Virus record (IMG/VR): IMGVR_UViG_2837719392_000001 | Direction: 5' to 3' (one strand) | DNA from: a virus | Lineage: Duplodnaviria; Heunggongvirae; Uroviricota; Caudoviricetes | DNA length: 15,147 bases | Shown: one piece after another, positions 3,006 to 10,573 of the stretch | Numbering within the stretch: position 1 is the stretch's first letter | How the letters are laid out: each line of letters opens with the position of its first letter | Position numbers and translations under genes: made by a program | The notes under the pieces: generated by a model | Told to the model about the DNA's origin: nothing | What the model saw: the letters and a program-made list of their open reading frames with translations, nothing else | Database searches by the model: none

Positions 3006-3758
3006 ATGTTTAAAAAAAATGAAGACTGGAATATTTGGGAAGAAGAGGATGTGATTGAAGAACCCAAAGAAAATGCAAACAAAAAAGACAAGAAAAAAAG
3101 AAAGCTATTGAAAAGAAACAAGAAAACCGAGAAAAAGGAAGAAGAAGTATGGGACGAAAGTGGAGAGATAGACTATTTAAGTGAAGATAGTGATGCCATC
3201 TATTCAAAGGATGATGAAGTCAGATACAGCAAAAAGAAGATTGCTATCTTTTCTATCATTGTCGTATTGATAGGACTATTTGGAATAGGTTATTTCAATA
3301 CGGATTTTGATGAAAATAATAAGGCATATGTTGTCAGCTATGACCTTCACTATGAAAGAAAATATGTAGAAAAGGCAGATGACCTTTATAATTATTGTTT
3401 GAATTTAGAAGAGGAATTAAAAACGATTATTCCAGCCCTTGCATCAAATAGCCTTGAAACAACGAATGAAGTTCAAAAAATCCTTCAAACACTCAATGCA
3501 AAAACTGACAATGTATCTCGCTATACAGAAGTCCCACAGATTATGGCAAACTACAATGATAATCTCATCAGTTTTGCCATGTCTACAGAAACCATGCTGG
3601 AAACAATGCTTGGAAATTATACATCCAGCGATTATATGGCGTGGGCTGAAAGTGCATATAATGATTTTGTTGACTCACTGAATACTTTAAAATATTTAAG
3701 AAGTCAGATTGACTTTGTTATATATAGAAATGTATATGGAGGTGAAGAGAATGAATAA
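3006..3758 (+). CDS. Single-pass membrane protein: charged cytoplasmic N-terminus, helical extracellular domain
   Basis: AGAGG RBS before ATG 3006; K/E/D-rich N-terminus; TM segment IAIFSIIVVLIGLFGIGYF; overlaps the next gene by 8 nt. Confidence 0.85.
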   Translation: MFKKNEDWNIWEEEDVIEEPKENANKKDKKKRKLLKRNKKTEKKEEEVWDESGEIDYLSEDSDAIYSKDDEVRYSKKKIAIFSIIVVLIGLFGIGYFNTDFDENNKAYVVSYDLHYERKYVEKADDLYNYCLNLEEELKTIIPALASNSLETTNEVQKILQTLNAKTDNVSRYTEVPQIMANYNDNLISFAMSTETMLETMLGNYTSSDYMAWAESAYNDFVDSLNTLKYLRSQIDFVIYRNVYGGEENE

Positions 3759-4965
3759 TGATTCCCTTATCATGCAATACGATGCACAGATTAATAGGAT
3801 TGAAAAAGAATATAGAGAAGCTCAATCAAGGGCAAAGAGTCTAAGAAAAAACCTCGAAACAATCGCTGAAAAAACCTGCAATTTTAAATATGCTATCAAA
3901 CAACTGGGTGGCCCTAATGAAATCTTCAAGATGAGTGATGGCCAGTTAAGAGATTTCATCATTACCAATATCATAGAGCAGAAGCAGGAATTTATGCAGA
4001 ATATTCGAGAATTACAGCAATTATATCTGGAATGTCAAAGAGAAAATCAGGAATTGGCTTCTAAGGTGTTGTCGCTTCAGGAAGCATTGGAGAGAAATGA
4101 GGGAAATAATAAAATCTTGCATGCATCTACACCACCTCCTCCAACATTTTCAAATAGTGAAGAGCCTTCTCAGGATAAAGCAGTGGTAGACGACAAGCTG
4201 ATTATGGGAGGAGAAGTGTATGATATTGCAAGAGTTGTTCAAAGACTCACAGTATACCAGGAAGAAATCGTCAAAGTCATGGGAGAAAAGGGTTATTCGG
4301 AAACTGCCGAGATTTTTGGTGAGGTTATGAAAAGGATTGATATTCAGGAAACAACACTGAAGAATGAGATGAGAAACCTTTCTGAAAAGCTTGTTGTAGA
4401 GAGTGAATCCATTTCAACATTTCTAAGAAGAAACCTATCGCTGTATAGATTAACGCAACTTGGAGAAGCAGTCTATAAACGATTAACAGAAAAAACTCCT
4501 GTTAAAGCTCAAAGGGATAAATTGGAATCACAGCATTCAACGCTTGAACATGCCTATCTCATAAAAGATACTGCGAGTATCCTTGAAACTTTAGGTTATA
4601 CAAATGTCACATATGATTCAAAAGACAATCAGATTCAGGTTGCGGGTGGTAACAGATATGTCCCAGATATCAGTGCCGATTTTTCTCCTACAGTCAAGAC
4701 TTACTGGGAATGCGAATTAGGACATCATAAAGATGCAGACTTTTTTGAAAAGTTACAGAAAGCAGCAAAGGTGACTGATACGCTTTATGTCATTACTCCA
4801 CGTAAGGAAGTATCTGATAAAATGAAAAAACAGATTGGTAGATATAAGGCTTCAGTTGTGACAAAACAGATGAAAACGCAGTTGATAGTTTTTGTAGGGA
4901 CAATCAGTCAATTGAAGACAAGACAGTTGTTCTCTAATAAGGATTGTCAAATAAAAATAGGGTAG
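3751..4965 (+). CDS. Coiled-coil + winged helix + PD-(D/E)xK-like domain protein, replication-relaxation-family-like, 404 aa
   Basis: GGAGGTG RBS before ATG 3751; heptad coiled coil; PPPP linker; wHTH ending LYRLTQLG; then EH...VPDIS...YWECELG...EKLQKA. The family call is pattern-based. Confidence 0.6.
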   Translation: MNNDSLIMQYDAQINRIEKEYREAQSRAKSLRKNLETIAEKTCNFKYAIKQLGGPNEIFKMSDGQLRDFIITNIIEQKQEFMQNIRELQQLYLECQRENQELASKVLSLQEALERNEGNNKILHASTPPPPTFSNSEEPSQDKAVVDDKLIMGGEVYDIARVVQRLTVYQEEIVKVMGEKGYSETAEIFGEVMKRIDIQETTLKNEMRNLSEKLVVESESISTFLRRNLSLYRLTQLGEAVYKRLTEKTPVKAQRDKLESQHSTLEHAYLIKDTASILETLGYTNVTYDSKDNQIQVAGGNRYVPDISADFSPTVKTYWECELGHHKDADFFEKLQKAAKVTDTLYVITPRKEVSDKMKKQIGRYKASVVTKQMKTQLIVFVGTISQLKTRQLFSNKDCQIKIG

Positions 4966-5038: not shown

Positions 5039-5569
5039 CTATGGAATATTGTTTATAATCTCGCTATTTTCATCATACAATTGAAAATTATTAGCAGAAG
5101 GGTTATTGCTTCCATCTATCAAGTAGATATCTAATATATATTCATTGTTTAGTTCATTAGTATATGATTTGTTTTGATTTTCAAAAGAGTATTTGATAGC
5201 TTTTACGTTGTTTTTACCATATACAACAATTATACTTCTCTCGTTTTCGAGATAATTAAAAGTATCAATATCCTGCGACGAGTCAGAACTTCCATAAAAA
5301 TTGTATTTTGTTGAAAATAAATCATGATTTTCTTCGTATATCACAAGATGACATTCAGCAGCATTGTCCTGATATAGAACGAAATAAAGGTCATCTTTAT
5401 ATTTTATTTTCTCAATAGACTCGAAATTTTTATCTCTTTGAGAAATGTCCTGAATCAAGAAGGGTAAAAAATCCTGAGAACGAGATAATATAACCACCCA
5501 TAAAAGTGAAAGAACAAGTATTCCACTTAAAAATATATAAAATAAATGAATCCTTTTCATCTTACTCAT
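5039..5569 (-). CDS. Membrane-anchored hypothetical protein, 176 aa
   Basis: N-terminal TM helix, beta-rich C-terminal domain; overlaps the VanZ stop. Confidence 0.8.
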   Translation of the reverse strand: MSKMKRIHLFYIFLSGILVLSLLWVVILSRSQDFLPFLIQDISQRDKNFESIEKIKYKDDLYFVLYQDNAAECHLVIYEENHDLFSTKYNFYGSSDSSQDIDTFNYLENERSIIVVYGKNNVKAIKYSFENQNKSYTNELNNEYILDIYLIDGSNNPSANNFQLYDENSEIINNIP

Positions 5570-6101
5570 TATTTGCTATCTGATTATATAAGCTTTGCAC
5601 CTTTGGATATAGACAATGTATTGGATAATAAATCAATATTCCTATACATATACTGATGAGATGAATGATGATATCACCGAAATCATATACATACTGCACA
5701 TATAAAGTTAAAAAATTAATAAGTAACTGTAAATTTTCTATACCAAATATAATAGCAACAGAAATCAAAATTGTATTTTTAAGTGGAAATTCTTTTCTTA
5801 ATATAAATCCAAATGGAATAAATAATACAAAATGGAAAAGAGTGTATTCGGGTAGTAACTCCAATTTTAATATAGGATGATAGAAATCAACAGCCCACCT
5901 TAATTCTTCTCCAAAATGATAATTTTCTCCAGGATTTAAAACAAAAGGGAAAAATAAGACACTAATGACAAATGATATATATATTCCCACAAATCCTGAA
6001 TAAAGTAATGAATAATTTTTAAAAAAGTAAAGAAAAGAGAATATAATTATTGCAATCACAATAAACAAAGGTATAGGAAATTGAATGATGTTCGAATCCA
6101 T
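5562..6101 (-). CDS. VanZ-family membrane protein
   Basis: Multi-TM; HFVLFIPFGF and IENLQ motifs and a terminal D..DI segment typical of VanZ-like proteins; GGAG RBS before ATG 6101. Confidence 0.75.
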   Translation of the reverse strand: MDSNIIQFPIPLFIVIAIIIFSFLYFFKNYSLLYSGFVGIYISFVISVLFFPFVLNPGENYHFGEELRWAVDFYHPILKLELLPEYTLFHFVLFIPFGFILRKEFPLKNTILISVAIIFGIENLQLLINFLTLYVQYVYDFGDIIIHLISICIGILIYYPIHCLYPKVQSLYNQIANNE

Positions 6102-6102
6102 T

Positions 6103-6544
6103 TTAATCTCCAAAAATCACTCTTATTTGCCCATAGACTTTTCTACCAGAATATATATCTGCATAAGAGCTAGTAAGTCTAATAGAATATTTACCAGAAG
6201 GTAATTCACCCCCAGCTTACAAATTTTCCAGAAGTCATCGCAACTGTTTTCTCTTTACCTGTTCTAGTTCCATCTCTAACGAGCTCAAAAGTCATTGTTT
6301 CTTTTGGCATATTTGTATCTGGATATAATGTAATACTAATGCCACCTTTATTTGGAACATAACTACTAATACTAGCAGGAGTTTCATAATAATTACTAAA
6401 ACTATAGGAATATGTAACAGTATTAGCAGTACGTGTACTTATGTTTGGTTGCTGACTAGAAGAAACATTTTCTAAAGCATAAGTATTAGAAATCATACCA
6501 AAAGATAATAAACATGCTAAACATGCACAAACTATTTTTTTCAT
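6103..6544 (-). pseudogene. Secreted beta-rich protein (~146 aa) interrupted by a +1 G in a G5 run
   Basis: Sec signal peptide and AAGGAG RBS. The ORF stops at 6206 right after GGGGG (C5 at 6209-6213). Removing one G extends it (..WGELPSGKYSIRLTSS..GQIRVIFGD*) to TAA 6105-6103, 1 nt before the VanZ ATG. Confidence 0.7.
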
Positions 6545-6587
6545 ATTATATTTCTCCTTAATATTTGTAATTTACGGCCGCAAATGT

Positions 6588-6617
6588 ATTTTATCACGTA
6601 ATACATGCTAAATGTAA
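6588..6617 (-). promoter_or_regulatory. Promoter of the minus operon with an overlapping inverted repeat
   Basis: TTACAT-18-TAAAAT with TG extension; ATGTATT(6584-6590)/AATACAT(6600-6606) inverted repeat overlaps the -10. Confidence 0.45.
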
Positions 6618-6703
6618 TAAACTTTTTTAAAGATTATGTTAAGATAATGTAAATAGAGAAGAGAACCTTGAAAACGACATTTAGGAAATAAACAAATTAT
6701 ATA

Positions 6704-6732
6704 TTGAAAAATTTAGGAAAATATGTTATAAT
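6704..6732 (+). promoter_or_regulatory. Strong sigmaA promoter at the head of the non-coding region
   Basis: TTGAAA(6704-6709)-17 nt-TATAAT(6727-6732) with TG extended -10; no ORF with an RBS follows. Confidence 0.8.
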
Positions 6733-6738
6733 AACAAA

Positions 6739-6875
6739 TGAAAGAAAGGAAGTGTACCAATATTAATTTATTTTAATTAAAACAGCTTTAGAATCTGCCA
6801 TATAACAATTAAAGCTAAAAAATATGTTATGAATCAAGGTACACTATGACTTCTTTTATAGAAGTCTTTTTCTTT
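6739..6875 (+). ncRNA. ~135-nt structured small RNA or attenuator leader
   Basis: Bracketed by the promoter and a terminator (GACTTCT/AGAAGTC + TTTTTCTTT, 6848-6875). Stems AGTGTACC(6751-6758)/GGTACACT(6838-6845) and AGCTTTA(6784-6790)/TAAAGCT(6810-6816). Confidence 0.55.
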
Positions 6876-6892
6876 ATCAATTTTATAAAGGT

Positions 6893-6992
6893 TTCATTCA
6901 CACCTGGAGATAGTGTTTCTCAATTTATCTGTCTGGAAAGGAGGATTAAAGACAAGACAGGAGATGAAGTGAATGGGGTTTTATCAGCCCAC
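6893..6992 (+). ncRNA. Structured RNA element (long imperfect hairpin), possibly a 5' part of the downstream large RNA
   Basis: TTCATTCAC/GTGAATGGG, TTTATCT/AGATGAA and CTGTCT/AGACAG nested pairings; loop contains GGAAAGGAGG. Confidence 0.35.
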
Positions 6993-7039
6993 ATAGAATT
7001 TGTAATCTGCGGAAAAACTTATGCCTGTATTGTATAATT

Positions 7040-7530
7040 TCTGGCTCCCAGGACATTATATAGTGCAGGGTTAACATAAGGGCAAGACCAATGAGATACA
7101 ACCAACCTCCATCATGTCTAAAGTTGGTTTCTATGAAAATCGATACTGATATTCTAGTTGCTATTGGTGTATAGGATGTTGAGCTCGTAAACCCTCAAAG
7201 CCTAGATGGCGAGGTGGATAAGATATCCTATATTGTTAAAGTCTAGATAATGCCTGGTGAGTTCTACCATGTGATATTTATATTGCTAAAATGACGGCGT
7301 GGAAGATGGTACCAGCAGACGAGGGAGGTCTGGACTGGTAGGGGGCAGTTCCCTTTTTGAAGGTGTTTTGGAAACCCATGGAAGCATGGCAAAAGTCATG
7401 TAACTGTAACTGAGAAAACCTCGCGACGACTGACCGACCGACGGAATACTCAATCCCTAGATGAGATAGTTTATCTATCTCCGTGTTTGATAGACCAATG
7501 CGTCTAGTCAAACCCTAGGGGGATTTTTTT
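7040..7530 (+). ncRNA. Large ornate non-coding RNA, probably ROOL class (boundaries approximate)
   Basis: ~43% GC by hand count in a ~30% GC window, with no credible ORF. Many helices and long-range pairings (7170-7179/7223-7232; 7209-7215/7418-7424; 7311-7320/7328-7339) and a 3' multibranch domain ending in a T-run. Motif order resembles ROOL sequences as I recall them; not verified by alignment. Confidence 0.6.
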
Positions 7531-7538
7531 ATTTACAA

Positions 7539-7690
7539 GGGTGCTTCCTGCTCAGAGCTTCTCTCCCTCTAGAATGAAAGGTGGGAACGAGCCCCTGTTT
7601 TTATCGAATGTTTTTATAAATTATGTAAGAACAGTTAGGGCAATGGCGAGCTTCCTTGGAAGCTCTGGGTGGGAGCACCTCCGTGCTCTA
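7539..7690 (+). ncRNA. 6S RNA-like long hairpin with central bubble
   Basis: ~21-bp closing stem 7540-7561/7659-7679 with 3 G-U pairs favouring the plus strand; central bubble; apical stem GCCC-CTGTTTTT/AAGAACAG-TTAGGGC; alternative release-type hairpin 7648-7654/7659-7665. Confidence 0.45.
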
Positions 7691-7714
7691 CTTTAATGCA
7701 AAAGTTGGCTTTCG

Positions 7715-7845
7715 TAATAAAAAATTATCATTTTTATCCATATTTAGCCTTCTAATGATAAAAAATTATCACTCATATCACAAAAATAGTGTTTCTATCA
7801 TAAAAAGTAAGCTTTTGAGCCAAAGTGAGTGGTAAAAAAATATCA
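7715..7845. repeat. Three copies of the 16-bp palindrome TGATAA-N4-TTATCA
   Basis: 7715-7730 TAATAAAAAATTATCA, 7756-7771 TGATAAAAAATTATCA (perfect), 7830-7845 TGGTAAAAAAATATCA. Confidence 0.7.
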
Positions 7846-7870
7846 TTTCTGTACAAATTAAAGAAATATC

Positions 7871-8100
7871 TATTCTTATATAATAGAAATATTCTTCTCT
7901 TACATCAGTAAAAGTTGTTTACTTTTGTAATATATTTCTTCTTATGTAATAGTAAAAGTTATTCACTTCTGTAACAGAAAAGTTAATTCATACATAAAGA
8001 GAAAAGTTTGATAGGGTTTTGATAGATTTTAGATAGTATTATTTTTTCTTTTGTATATAAATATAAGTTAAATAGATTATAATTAGGTTTTATAAGGTAT
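7871..8100. repeat. Very AT-rich region with iteron-like direct repeats; putative origin or protein-binding array
   Basis: ~20% GC. AGTAAAAGTTGTTTACTTTTGTAA(7907-7930) vs AGTAAAAGTTATTCACTTCTGTAA(7951-7974); AGAAAAGTT at 7976 and 8000; TTCTTAT(A/G)TAATAG at 7873 and 7939. Confidence 0.5.
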
Positions 8101-8124
8101 TGCACTTATAATAGAATAATAGTT

Positions 8125-8165
8125 TTCTCAGAGAAGGTTACAGAGGCGTTCTCATTCTCAGAGAA
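8125..8165. repeat. Two copies of the palindrome TTCTCAGAGAA
   Basis: Exact copies at 8125-8135 and 8155-8165 (30-bp period). Confidence 0.7.
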
Positions 8166-8371
8166 TACTTTTTTTGTCTATATAATTCAAGTTATGCTTG
8201 AGTTGGGAGCATATAGTGAGGGTTTTATAGGAGTGATTATTAACATAAATTAACAAAAATAAGTCACATCTCAAGTTATACTTGAATAAGACAGAAAATA
8301 TATCTTTTGTTGGGATGTTTATCAAGATTATTTTGAGTATTGTTTTAGAAAACAGATGTTTTTGTTAGTTT

Positions 8372-8401
8372 TTCTCATAACATTAGTAATAGTGGTATAA
8401 T
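8372..8401 (+). promoter_or_regulatory. Antisense promoter into the 3' end of the 8428-8616 ORF
   Basis: TCTCA(8373-8377)-18 nt-TATAAT(8396-8401) with TG extended -10. Confidence 0.55.
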
Positions 8402-8425
8402 AAAAGAGCAGGGACAAGTCCCCGC
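8402..8425 (-). terminator. Terminator of small ORF A
   Basis: Minus-strand GCGGGGA-CTTG-TCCCTGC followed by TCTTTT, 3 nt after the stop. Confidence 0.65.
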
Positions 8426-8427
8426 GT

Positions 8428-8616
8428 TTATTGCCTTTTCTGGCTCTTGTAGAATGTATCTACTAAATTGATTGTTACATCGGCAGTGATTGTAAGAACT
8501 AATGTGTCGAGAGGTAACATTTGTAGTGTTGTGAGCCATTCTATGATGTCCACTAAAATAATGAACAGAATGGCTTTCCAACTTTTCTTCAAGGCAGACA
8601 ACAGTCTGCTTGCCAT
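8428..8616 (-). CDS. Small hydrophobic peptide A (62 aa), type I toxin-like
   Basis: GGAGG SD sequestered in a 9-bp hairpin (8630-8638/8647-8655); hydrophobic helices; basic C-terminus; own promoter and terminator. The SD-ATG spacing is long (13 nt). Confidence 0.55.
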   Translation of the reverse strand: MASRLLSALKKSWKAILFIILVDIIEWLTTLQMLPLDTLVLTITADVTINLVDTFYKSQKRQ

Positions 8617-8656
8617 AAAGACATTTTCACCTCCGTCGTTTGGAAGCGACAGAGGT

Positions 8657-8696
8657 ATTTTATTATATATATAAGTTAAATTCAAGTTATGCTTGA
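8657..8696 (-). promoter_or_regulatory. Promoter of peptide A with the operator over the -35
   Basis: TTGAAT-17-TAAAAT on the minus strand; palindrome 8682-8696 overlaps the -35. Confidence 0.65.
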
Positions 8697-8901
8697 GTCT
8701 AGACTGCATAAAAAGAGCTTATATAGATATAAAGTTGTCTATAGCGTATGTTCAATACAAGTTTATACTTTAAAAATACCTATAACACCATCTTTTTTTG
8801 TATGTGAGTTAGCTTAGACTAATATAGTTTGAAGAGCGTTGAGGAACCCCGTTATCGACGGTGTTATGAACAGTGTTATATGTTAAAGAGACAACATTCA
8901 T

Positions 8902-8941
8902 ACAAGTTATACTTGAATATGCCTACATTATTACATAAAAT
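8902..8941 (+). promoter_or_regulatory. Promoter of peptide B with the operator over the -35
   Basis: TTGAAT(8913-8918)-17-TAAAAT(8936-8941); palindrome 8902-8916; leader hairpin GCGTACCAG/CTGGTACGT follows. Confidence 0.65.
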
Positions 8942-8974
8942 AAAAGCGTACCAGCTCTAAATATATCTGGTACG

Positions 8975-9178
8975 TTGGTGATTATTATTTTAGGCGGTTG
9001 TTCGCAGGTACTTTTTCATATGTGCCTTCAATTCGCTATTCAATATATCACCGATATATTCCACCTCAATGACTACCAAGGAATTGTCGTGGAAGTTATC
9101 GTGATTGCAATGGTGAATATTGTTGTCATAATAATTAACAATTTAAGAAATGACACTGGACAACAGGCCGAAAAGTAG
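8975..9178 (+). CDS. Small hydrophobic peptide B (52-67 aa, start uncertain), type I toxin-like
   Basis: Strong TM segment IVVEVIVIAMVNIVVIII; promoter upstream; weak hairpin plus T6 downstream; no clear SD (possible starts TTG 8975, GTG 8978, ATG 9020). Confidence 0.5.
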   Translation: MVIIILGGCSQVLFHMCLQFAIQYITDIFHLNDYQGIVVEVIVIAMVNIVVIIINNLRNDTGQQAEK

Positions 9179-9206
9179 GGAACATACAAGATTTCCCCGC
9201 TTTTTT

Positions 9207-9235
9207 ATTATAGCATAATAAATAGTATATTGAGA
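9207..9235 (-). promoter_or_regulatory. Antisense promoter into the 3' end of the 8975-9178 ORF
   Basis: Minus-strand TCTCA-18 nt-TATAAT with TG extended -10; same geometry as 8372-8401. Confidence 0.55.
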
Positions 9236-9247
9236 GGTTTTGTCTTA

Positions 9248-10573
9248 TTAAACATATGGTGTAATCAACCAATCAATCAAATTAATAGATTTAATACCAT
9301 CATAAGAAGTATCTAAGCCTGTATTTAAAGAAAGAACAATTTTTTCATAGTTATCCTTTATTTTTTGAAGTGGTGTTAATTCTCTATCTCGTACTTCTTC
9401 ACTTTCCATTGATTCAGTAACTTGAATATAAAGTTTCTCATCAGTCTTGGTGGCGATAAAATCTACTTCTAAATTGTCAACCTTTCCTATAGAAACATCA
9501 TAACCTCTACGAAGCAACTCTAAATAGACAACATTTTCTATAGCATGTCCACTATCTCTGTTTCTGACACCTAACAGGTAATTTCTAAGTCCAATATCAA
9601 CGATATAGTATTTACCAAGTGTTCTTAAGAATTCTTTACCTTTGATATCAAATCTTTTGATATCATAAAAAAAGTATGATTCTAACAATGCATTTATATA
9701 AGCTTGAACCGTATGAGTACTTGGATTACCTTTTCGTTTCCCATCCTCAAGAAGCCCTTCATTGACTAGAGTGTTACCAATAGAAGAAACAGAAATATTG
9801 TTGCCTATATTATCTGCTAAAAATAGAATAATCTTTTTTAGAAGAACTGGGTCAGTAATTCTTTTTTGTCCTCTTCGATTTTCTCTCTCAAGAATATCTC
9901 TCATAATAACCGTAGAATAAATACCCTCAAGTAATACAAATGCTTTTTCTTGGTCAAGTCCTACATCAGCAATACCTGGCATTCCACCAAAACGCATATA
10001 AGCTTCAAAAAGTTCTTGAAGGTCATAATATTCCCCGTTTTTATCAACAACTTGTTTGCGCGTGCCTCCTAAAGCACTTTTTCTTTCCCTAACTTCGAAA
10101 TCATGAAATATTATAAATTCCATAAATGATAGAGGTAATACCTTAATTTCTATACATCTTCCTGACAAATAAGTTGCATATTCAGAGGAAAGCATATAAG
10201 CATTAGAGCCAGTTACATAGATATCGCAATTGAAATCAACACGGAAAGAGTTAATAGCATCTTCCCAGTTTGGAACTCTTTGTACTTCATCAAAGAAAAG
10301 ATACATTCTTTTGTTAGGTATAATGTGTTGTTTAACATATTCATAGAAAGATTCACTATTCATATCCTTATAGGCATGAGATTCAAAATTCATTTCAAGT
10401 ATCTGGTCATCATTAATCCCGCTTTCTTTTAAATGTAGAATCATAAGCTTTAATAGACTGGATTTTCCACATCTACGAATTCCTGTTACGACTTTGACAG
10501 GCTCAGTGTCTTGAAATGCTATGATTTTATTCAAATATAAATCTCTTTTTTTGAGTTTATGACTATCAATCAT
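9248..10573 (-). CDS. AAA_14-family ATP-binding protein with C-terminal DUF4143 domain, 441 aa
   Basis: Walker A GIRRCGKS, Walker B FFDEVQ, TGSN motif, FGGMP, C-terminal ENVVYLEL...EVDFIA; GGAGGT RBS. Confidence 0.9.
   Translation of the reverse strand: MIDSHKLKKRDLYLNKIIAFQDTEPVKVVTGIRRCGKSSLLKLMILHLKESGINDDQILEMNFESHAYKDMNSESFYEYVKQHIIPNKRMYLFFDEVQRVPNWEDAINSFRVDFNCDIYVTGSNAYMLSSEYATYLSGRCIEIKVLPLSFMEFIIFHDFEVRERKSALGGTRKQVVDKNGEYYDLQELFEAYMRFGGMPGIADVGLDQEKAFVLLEGIYSTVIMRDILERENRRGQKRITDPVLLKKIILFLADNIGNNISVSSIGNTLVNEGLLEDGKRKGNPSTHTVQAYINALLESYFFYDIKRFDIKGKEFLRTLGKYYIVDIGLRNYLLGVRNRDSGHAIENVVYLELLRRGYDVSIGKVDNLEVDFIATKTDEKLYIQVTESMESEEVRDRELTPLQKIKDNYEKIVLSLNTGLDTSYDGIKSINLIDWLITPYV

Follow-up and report, generated by a model that had tools for sequence, protein, structure and literature searches.

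A conserved plus-strand RNA with a pseudoknotted core, unmatched in Rfam 15, on plasmid-like elements of gut Erysipelotrichaceae

Does the GC-rich, gene-free block of about 490 nt at positions 7040 to 7530 of IMG/VR record IMGVR_UViG_2837719392_000001 (15,147 nt, the whole stretch analyzed here and called the window) encode a large structured RNA, and, if so, of which family? OLE, GOLLD, and ROOL are large, ornate RNAs known from Firmicutes and from the mobile elements of these bacteria. Few bacterial RNAs of at least 0.5 kb have complex folds that are conserved (among them rRNA, RNase P, group I and II introns, OLE, GOLLD, ROOL, and raiA), and each newly found large folded RNA has led to unexpected biochemistry or assemblies. 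The first-pass annotation of the window proposed the block as a candidate member of the ROOL class, with a new class of large RNA as its fallback. We consider it probable that the block is the body of a genuine structured RNA, non-coding, read from the plus strand and belonging to an undescribed family, and we include in this assessment the reading that the RNA would be gated by an attenuator and act in trans. The RNA is abundant in public gut assemblies, and the core fold with its invariant loops is open to testing.

Conservation and coding potential

We found the RNA in four diverged lineages among gut metagenome contigs: A (window-like), B (L072 to L075), B2 (L099), and C (the L079 group). 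Lineages B, B2, and C were recovered through relatives of the neighboring gene for a 418-aa protein (3709 to 4965), whose homologues are 81% identical in B, 81% identical in B2, and 54% identical in C (L079). The island that holds the RNA lies directly after this gene in lineage B; in lineage C it lies about 9 kb away, on the opposite side of the module, adjoining an ordinary gene. A metagenome scan added further members of lineage C (L081 to L083, L085, and L086). Identity of the RNA between lineages A and B is 87% across 7036 to 7535 and 90 to 93% across 7098 to 7420, versus 77% at the DNA level for the flanking 418-aa and SSB genes and 52% beyond 7700. Judged by this comparison, the RNA evolves more slowly than the adjoining protein genes, only four lineages of the RNA, all in one element family, being known.

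A blastn search of 6880 to 7720 against plasmids and phages gave nothing, and exact and gapped patterns gave only chance hits in IMG/VR. The sole find of a pattern scan of GTDB genomes was a near-identical MAG contig, DWZO01000084.1 (contig C50 of genome G001, the MAG Candidatus Massilimicrobiota merdigallinarum). BLAST of 61 relatives returned the same genome only, plus a weak 45-nt match (E = 4e-4) in G027, and model R1 run on 81 genomes of the family also found G001 only. A core pattern gave nothing over 401 genomes of the order, the pattern being too strict and missing even haplotype A2 in G001. The left-neighbor gene has entries in 348 blocks of the collection, on contigs of up to 256 kb, and the copies of the RNA reached through it are all at least 97.7% identical. 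Within 10 kb of the module, the RNA was absent from the relatives with 36 to 60% identity in the 418-aa protein (L076, L077, L088, L090 to L093, and L095 to L097).

The GC content of 7036 to 7535 is 42.4% (38 to 47% in 200-nt windows), versus 31.5% for the whole window and 21 to 28% in the immediate flanks, which agrees with the first-pass description of an ORF-free block of about 43% GC. No ORF of at least 40 aa lies on the plus strand of 7040 to 7530. Three ORFs of 42 to 77 aa lie on the minus strand; the 77-aa one proved spurious, and a protein search with it returned nothing. No reading frame is conserved across the relatives: each of the six frames has at least five stops in every lineage, the 58 substitutions between A and B are spread over the codon positions as 21/15/22 and thus lack codon periodicity, and the seven indels between these lineages are each one column wide. 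The ORFs that gene callers place on the block vary in frame and stop position by lineage and are therefore unconserved, and the invariant words GATAAG and TCTAGATAA stand in a different frame in A than in C. The block is non-coding sequence under strong purifying selection.

The pseudoknotted core and the flanking domains

The MFE z-scores of the single sequence are weak (-1.2 for the plus strand and -1.6 for the minus strand), and perfect 7-mer complements within the block number 6, versus 7.5 ± 3.4 in shuffled sequences. Because complementary words taken from the window alone are at chance level, the case for a fold depends on the relatives. The single-sequence MFE fold itself was set aside as uninformative, with 13 of 30 A-to-B substitutions keeping its pairing versus 12.5 expected.

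Gathering homologues, as had been proposed at first pass, and comparing their base pairs yielded the four lineages and a set of core helices that keep pairing through compensatory changes (Table 1). The register between lineages was set by the invariant words TTGAG, TCGTAAA, GATAAG, and TCTAG. The helix 7170-7179/7223-7232, already recognized from the window alone, is P3, in which 8 of the 12 pairs are changed on both sides across lineages, with six double changes between A and C; B2 has gained one nucleotide per strand, readable as one added pair, and all 13 pairs form. P2 carries two double and two single changes, those of P2b being compensatory. One A-U to G-C change and three wobble changes are found in P1, a U-A to A-U change and one wobble change in P4, and double or wobble-keeping changes in P6 and P7, compensatory in P6.

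Table 1. Features of the RNA and of its predicted control elements, in window coordinates
Feature	Position	Strand	Basis or remarks
Predicted sigma-70-type promoter	6704-6732	+	TTGAAA, 17 nt with TG, TATAAT; scan score 11/12
Leader/putative attenuator	6739-6875	+	~130 nt; terminator scan, leader profile
Leader purine-rich 5' segment	~6742-6753	+	
Leader stem	6753-6759/6838-6844	+	loop length varies
Leader terminator hairpin	6848-6866	+	U-run 6867-6875
5' domain	6876-7086	+	alignments; GGAGG, hairpins 6975-6990 and 7036-7057
Conserved pseudoknotted core	7087-7290	+	eight helices, covariance model and pair tables; ~190 nt
PK	7087-7092/7163-7168	+	crosses P2
P1	7100-7106/7123-7129	+	CCUCC at 7106-7110
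P2	7153-7157 and 7160-7162, paired with 7240-7247	+	
P3	7169-7180/7222-7233	+	
P4	7193-7196/7211-7214	+	
P5	7200-7202/7208-7210	+	
P6	7255-7258/7266-7269	+	
P7	7271-7276/7281-7286	+	
Invariant internal loop	7179-7191 opposite 7217-7222	+	asymmetric, UUGAGYUCGUAAA opposite GAUAAG
3' domain (A, B, and B2 only)	7291-7454	+	hairpin 7311-7341, alternative CAUG helices 7376-7401 (RNAalifold)
Three-way-junction intrinsic terminator	7455-7531	+	consensus fold; outer stem 7455-7460/7515-7520
Terminator hairpin a	7463-7469/7475-7481	+	
Terminator hairpin b	7485-7495/7502-7513	+	
Terminator T-run	7524-7530	+	seven T
Second GC-rich element	7539-7690	+	just downstream of the RNA; kept in A, B, and B2 (64% identity, A versus B), absent in C

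Nested and crossing helices had been foreseen, and a crossing does exist, but as PK over P2 and not as any of the crossings then named. The 5' strand of PK, ACCAAU in A, is AUUGAU, AUUAAU, or AUCAAU in B and B2; its partner, AUUGGU, is unchanged and each change makes a G.U pair. The pairing thus survives four different wobble substitutions, with three wobbles in lineage B, and in lineage C the helix reads CACAG/UUGUG. Since the other strand would have C.A mismatches where these G.U wobbles lie, the plus strand is the folded one, and since PK crosses P2, the core is on this evidence an H-type pseudoknot in which 7153 to 7180 is paired continuously.

Model R2, built from A, B, and B2 only with C left out, finds lineage C at 97 bits (E = 1e-16). 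In the R2 alignment with C, 95.5% of cells pair versus 84.0 ± 1.1% after shuffling, and 16 of 44 pairs are changed on both sides versus 8.1 ± 2.0; none of 500 shuffles reached either observed value, a significance that the shuffle controls overstate because the lineages are related, and the alignment itself was fitted to the model. Slid controls gave 34 to 45% paired cells and 1 to 4 pairs changed on both sides.

Four pairings named in the first-pass annotation are not supported by these comparisons. The helix TTGAG/CTCAA and the pseudoknot CTCG/CGAG both compete with the covarying P3 and P4, and pairs of theirs are lost through 7180 T to C in haplotype A2, through 7185 T to A in L069, and also in lineage C. 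The long-range match GCGAGGT/ACCTCGC is of the kind expected by chance (the 6 versus 7.5 ± 3.4 complements above), overlaps P4 and P5, has an A.C mismatch at 7423 in L099, and lacks a counterpart in C. GAGGG/CCCTC overlaps P4, and its hairpin at 7321 to 7325 sits in the 3' domain that differs in C.

Outside the core, the fold is an RNAalifold model that we treat as unverified, several of its long-range helices losing pairs in L099. Its helices 7088-7091/7368-7371 and 7080-7082/7375-7377, with one pair lost each in that lineage, are rejected or at least weakened; so is ACCA/UGGU (7102-7105/7306-7309), whose loss of two of four pairs in L099 favors the P1 hairpin instead. In the 5' domain, the Shine-Dalgarno-like GGAGG at 6940 to 6944 is invariant and could base-pair with CCUCC, itself invariant, in the P1 loop, masking that loop. 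The hairpin at 6975 to 6990 keeps its UUUYAUCAG loop on a stem that is GGG/CCC in A and B and AAGG/CCUU in C, and the hairpin at 7036 to 7057 keeps its pairing in B through one double and two single changes and has one pair broken in L099. Lineage C is without 7020 to 7093 and also without its RNAalifold 3' partner region, as would be expected if a peripheral domain had been lost whole. Two copies of the word GGUUU(Y)AUCA..CC lie in the 5' domain of lineage A (window 6890 to 6906 and 6975 to 6990) and of lineage C (L079 483 to 498 and 562 to 577), and the word may be a repeated binding hairpin. In L079 (527 to 638), an ATG 5 nt after GGAGG opens a 32-codon ORF that runs into the P1 hairpin; a start codon is absent at that GGAGG in A, B, and B2.

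The 3' domain is 93% identical between A and B and is replaced in C by a shorter unrelated stretch. The 3' three-way junction with its T-run, also reported at first pass, is consistent with the variation observed: hairpin b keeps its pairs in L099 through an A-U to U-A change and two wobble-keeping changes, and the other substitutions fall in loops. A simple hairpin and U-run take the place of the junction in lineage C. The body is about 490 nt long, within a unit of about 790 nt, with one supported pseudoknot (PK across P2), at least two multistem junctions, and an unverified architecture outside the core.

Predicted transcription unit and competing explanations

The 5' boundary that the first-pass annotation had drawn at 7040 turned out to be arbitrary, with no conserved promoter there and conservation starting at the promoter at 6704. 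A candidate internal promoter at 7033 to 7038 was discarded, its -10 element being lost in lineage B. The -35, TG, and -10 elements of the upstream promoter are kept in A, B, B2, C, and L098 despite differing flanks, and transcription is expected to start near 6739. The hairpin and U-run of the leader are kept in five lineages, with other stem letters and the same shape in C, and in every lineage the purine run of the leader and the 5' arm of the terminator are complementary. The leader therefore has, at the level of sequence, the layout of an attenuator, namely, a leader terminator and an exclusive upstream pairing, both conserved, and we infer that it is an attenuator with antiterminator pairing. 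A profile of the leader gave one hit per locus, always ahead of a GC-rich block, and a promoter scan of the minus strand of the leader found no antisense promoter.

In L098, where the 418-aa homologue is 79% identical, the same promoter, leader, and terminator stand in the same place. The leader is followed there by a gene-free block of about 650 nt that reaches 48% GC and ends in a long hairpin (promoter to block, L098:5013 to 5810). This body, which matched neither the window RNA nor Rfam, has the look of another large RNA, unrelated to the first, in the position that the first would occupy. A conserved attenuator that would drive a different body in a relative offers a direct handle on the purpose of large mobile-element RNAs.

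In the mechanism that we propose, the unit would start at the promoter with a leader of about 130 nt ending in an intrinsic terminator, and pairing of the purine-rich 5' end of the leader with the 5' arm of that terminator would allow attenuation to gate the amount of RNA made. Readthrough would then yield, in order, the 5' domain with GGAGG, the pseudoknotted core, the lineage-specific 3' domain, and a terminator ending at about 7531. The core would display two invariant single-stranded elements, the CCUCC hairpin loop and the asymmetric internal loop, and the folded RNA would act in trans, with these loops docking a protein or a Shine-Dalgarno-like or anti-Shine-Dalgarno sequence. RNAs of the RsaE/RoxS type are C-rich-loop regulatory RNAs of Firmicutes. 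The window RNA resembles them in that its stable stem P1 presents a C-rich hairpin loop without variation (CCUCC, the complement of Shine-Dalgarno sequences), but it is five to eight times larger, its own GGAGG could mask the loop, and homology with them is absent.

The ROOL label and its extension, that the RNA is a member, possibly divergent, of ROOL, GOLLD, or OLE, draw on real resemblances. Like ROOL (RF03087) and GOLLD, the RNA is large (0.5 to 0.8 kb) and multibranched, with at least one pseudoknot and multistem junctions, and has what appear to be its own promoter and terminator on Firmicute mobile DNA. A trait of ROOL, GOLLD, and OLE is homo-oligomeric, RNA-only assembly, including oligomeric cages (PMC12286853). 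The covariance-model scan suggested at first pass was run with the 4,227 families of Rfam 15, including RF03087 (574 positions; gathering cutoff, 99.1 bits). The whole window gave zero matches at gathering score, and 6500 to 8300 searched at E ≤ 10 with permissive filters gave zero within 6900 to 7700, the four hits obtained (15 to 24 bits, against cutoffs of at least 48) all lying outside that interval. The models unmatched at this block include GOLLD, OLE, HEARO, raiA, group I and II introns, RNase P, tmRNA, 6S, and the other Rfam 15 families. RF03087 also had no match in G001, which holds a 99% identical copy of the RNA, in a search whose control genomes were likewise without an RF03087 positive. 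ROOL and GOLLD often adjoin tRNA genes and occur in prophages (PMC5737381), whereas ARAGORN found no tRNA or tmRNA in the 15-kb window and the RNA was unmatched in phage and IMG/VR collections. Unlike ROOL and GOLLD, the RNA is also preceded by a conserved terminator-bearing leader and is found so far in one plasmid-like element family. The order of motifs offered for ROOL at first pass was an unaligned resemblance. Membership in ROOL, GOLLD, or OLE is effectively refuted, and we give it next to no credence. The evidence favors the fallback, a new class, and the broader claim of a large structured non-coding RNA on a mobile element is upheld by purifying selection stronger than on the neighboring genes, covariation in eight helices, a pseudoknot, and a promoter and terminator that would be its own.

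The main rival, which we think unlikely, has the RNA prime replication or control copy number at an origin in the AT-rich zone at 7715 to 8165, either like ColE1 RNA II or controlled by a countertranscript. An SSB/replication-type module and the AT-rich repeat zone do adjoin the RNA, and the leader, in which a preemptor precedes a terminator as it does in pT181-type attenuation, is akin to the countertranscript or attenuation leaders of Gram-positive plasmids (pT181 and the pIP501/pAMbeta1 type) and to ColE1 RNA II in that a 5' segment can preempt a downstream terminator on a plasmid-borne locus near replication-type genes. The replacement of the body behind the same leader in L098 would also suit an incompatibility or specificity determinant, such as is expected to differ between close relatives in plasmid countertranscript systems. 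ColE1-type primer RNA, however, runs unterminated into its origin, and an antisense RNA is made from its 5' region. The window RNA instead stops at a strong intrinsic terminator (7455 to 7530, with seven T) that parts it from the AT-rich zone in A, B, and B2, and its position relative to the module varies by lineage, with lineage C having it 9 kb off, on the other side of the module and beside an ordinary gene. Unlike the pT181 and pIP501 leaders, this leader has a structured RNA downstream and not a rep gene; an antisense promoter was not detected in it, an adjacent initiator gene is absent, and Rep_3 was not found in G001. The terminator and the position of the RNA in C weaken this rival. 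Less probable still is that the block acts as DNA or single-stranded DNA (a transfer origin, a leading-region single-strand promoter, or a recombination site). The large element looks conjugative (Tad-like ATPases, topoisomerase, sortase), and an SSB gene and a variable region adjoin the block, but its helices are kept through G.U pairs on the plus strand only, as with the three PK wobbles of lineage B, a canonical double-strand promoter and intrinsic terminators frame it, and the fold is multibranched with short helices and not a single long hairpin. We put just as little faith in a reading of the block as an extended cis-regulatory leader or as the mRNA of at least one small protein, the candidates being a 63-aa ORF at 6846 to 7037 in A and a 32-aa ORF in C whose Shine-Dalgarno sequence and ATG are canonical. 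GGAGG is invariant and is followed in C, 5 nt downstream, by an ATG with 32 codons, and gene callers annotate small ORFs on the region; yet a suitably spaced start codon is lacking in A, B, and B2, the frame in C is displaced by 2 nt from that in A when measured against the conserved GGUUUYAUCAGCC block, the stops vary in position by lineage, and a downstream gene common to the lineages is absent.

Beyond the preferred reading of an attenuator-gated, trans-acting structured RNA, we suggest, tentatively and with slightly less than even confidence, that the RNA may represent a new class, large, pseudoknotted, and particular to the giant plasmid-like elements that gut Bacillota carry, residing at a "cargo RNA" locus where one promoter-attenuator drives interchangeable, unrelated bodies. 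These bodies would be the window type in A, B, B2, and C and the other GC-rich body, of about 650 nt, in L098. They might serve as RNA-level determinants of specificity, incompatibility, or host interaction, or they might be self-assembling RNAs like ROOL and GOLLD.

The carrier element and its variable surroundings

The carriers of the RNA are very large plasmid-like elements of gut Erysipelotrichaceae, seen on contigs of up to about 250 to 300 kb. In tblastn searches, relatives of the 418-aa gene occurred only on large Firmicute plasmids, with none in phages. Related loci encode dnaE, topoisomerase, SSB, Tad-like ATPases, sortase, and surface proteins, and the RNA has the SSB/replication-type gene module beside it, stands at the border of a variable region, and is adjoined by the AT-rich, repeat-bearing zone. 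Identity with the Hodor megaplasmids (PMC12934698) was considered and set aside; because Rep_3 was not found in G001, the link to those megaplasmids is only a lead. The dnaE gene is split by GIY-YIG or LAGLIDADG endonuclease inserts in related elements (L076:1967 to 5986 and L088:1 to 5858).

Three minus-strand genes (5039 to 6544, for proteins of 176 aa, 183 aa [VanZ-like], and 112 or 146 aa) are absent from B and B2, where the RNA island begins about 60 nt past the 417-aa gene; to judge from this arrangement, they appear to have been inserted between module and RNA. The gene to the left of the RNA (6104 to 6544, minus strand) encodes 146 aa in most relatives and is cut to 112 aa in the window by a frameshift, due to one extra base within a G run at about 6209 to 6211.

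On the other side of the RNA, the otherwise near-identical L069, L070, and L071 have wholly different sequence from about 8200 (window, about 8200 to 9250), and the RNA island therefore borders a swap-prone variable region. A smaller difference occurs within the second GC-rich element, in the hairpin GAGCTTC-loop-GAAGCTC (7648 to 7665), whose loop is CTTG in the window and CAAG in L059-type sequences, L071, B, and B2, a flip of the central dinucleotide at 7656 to 7657.
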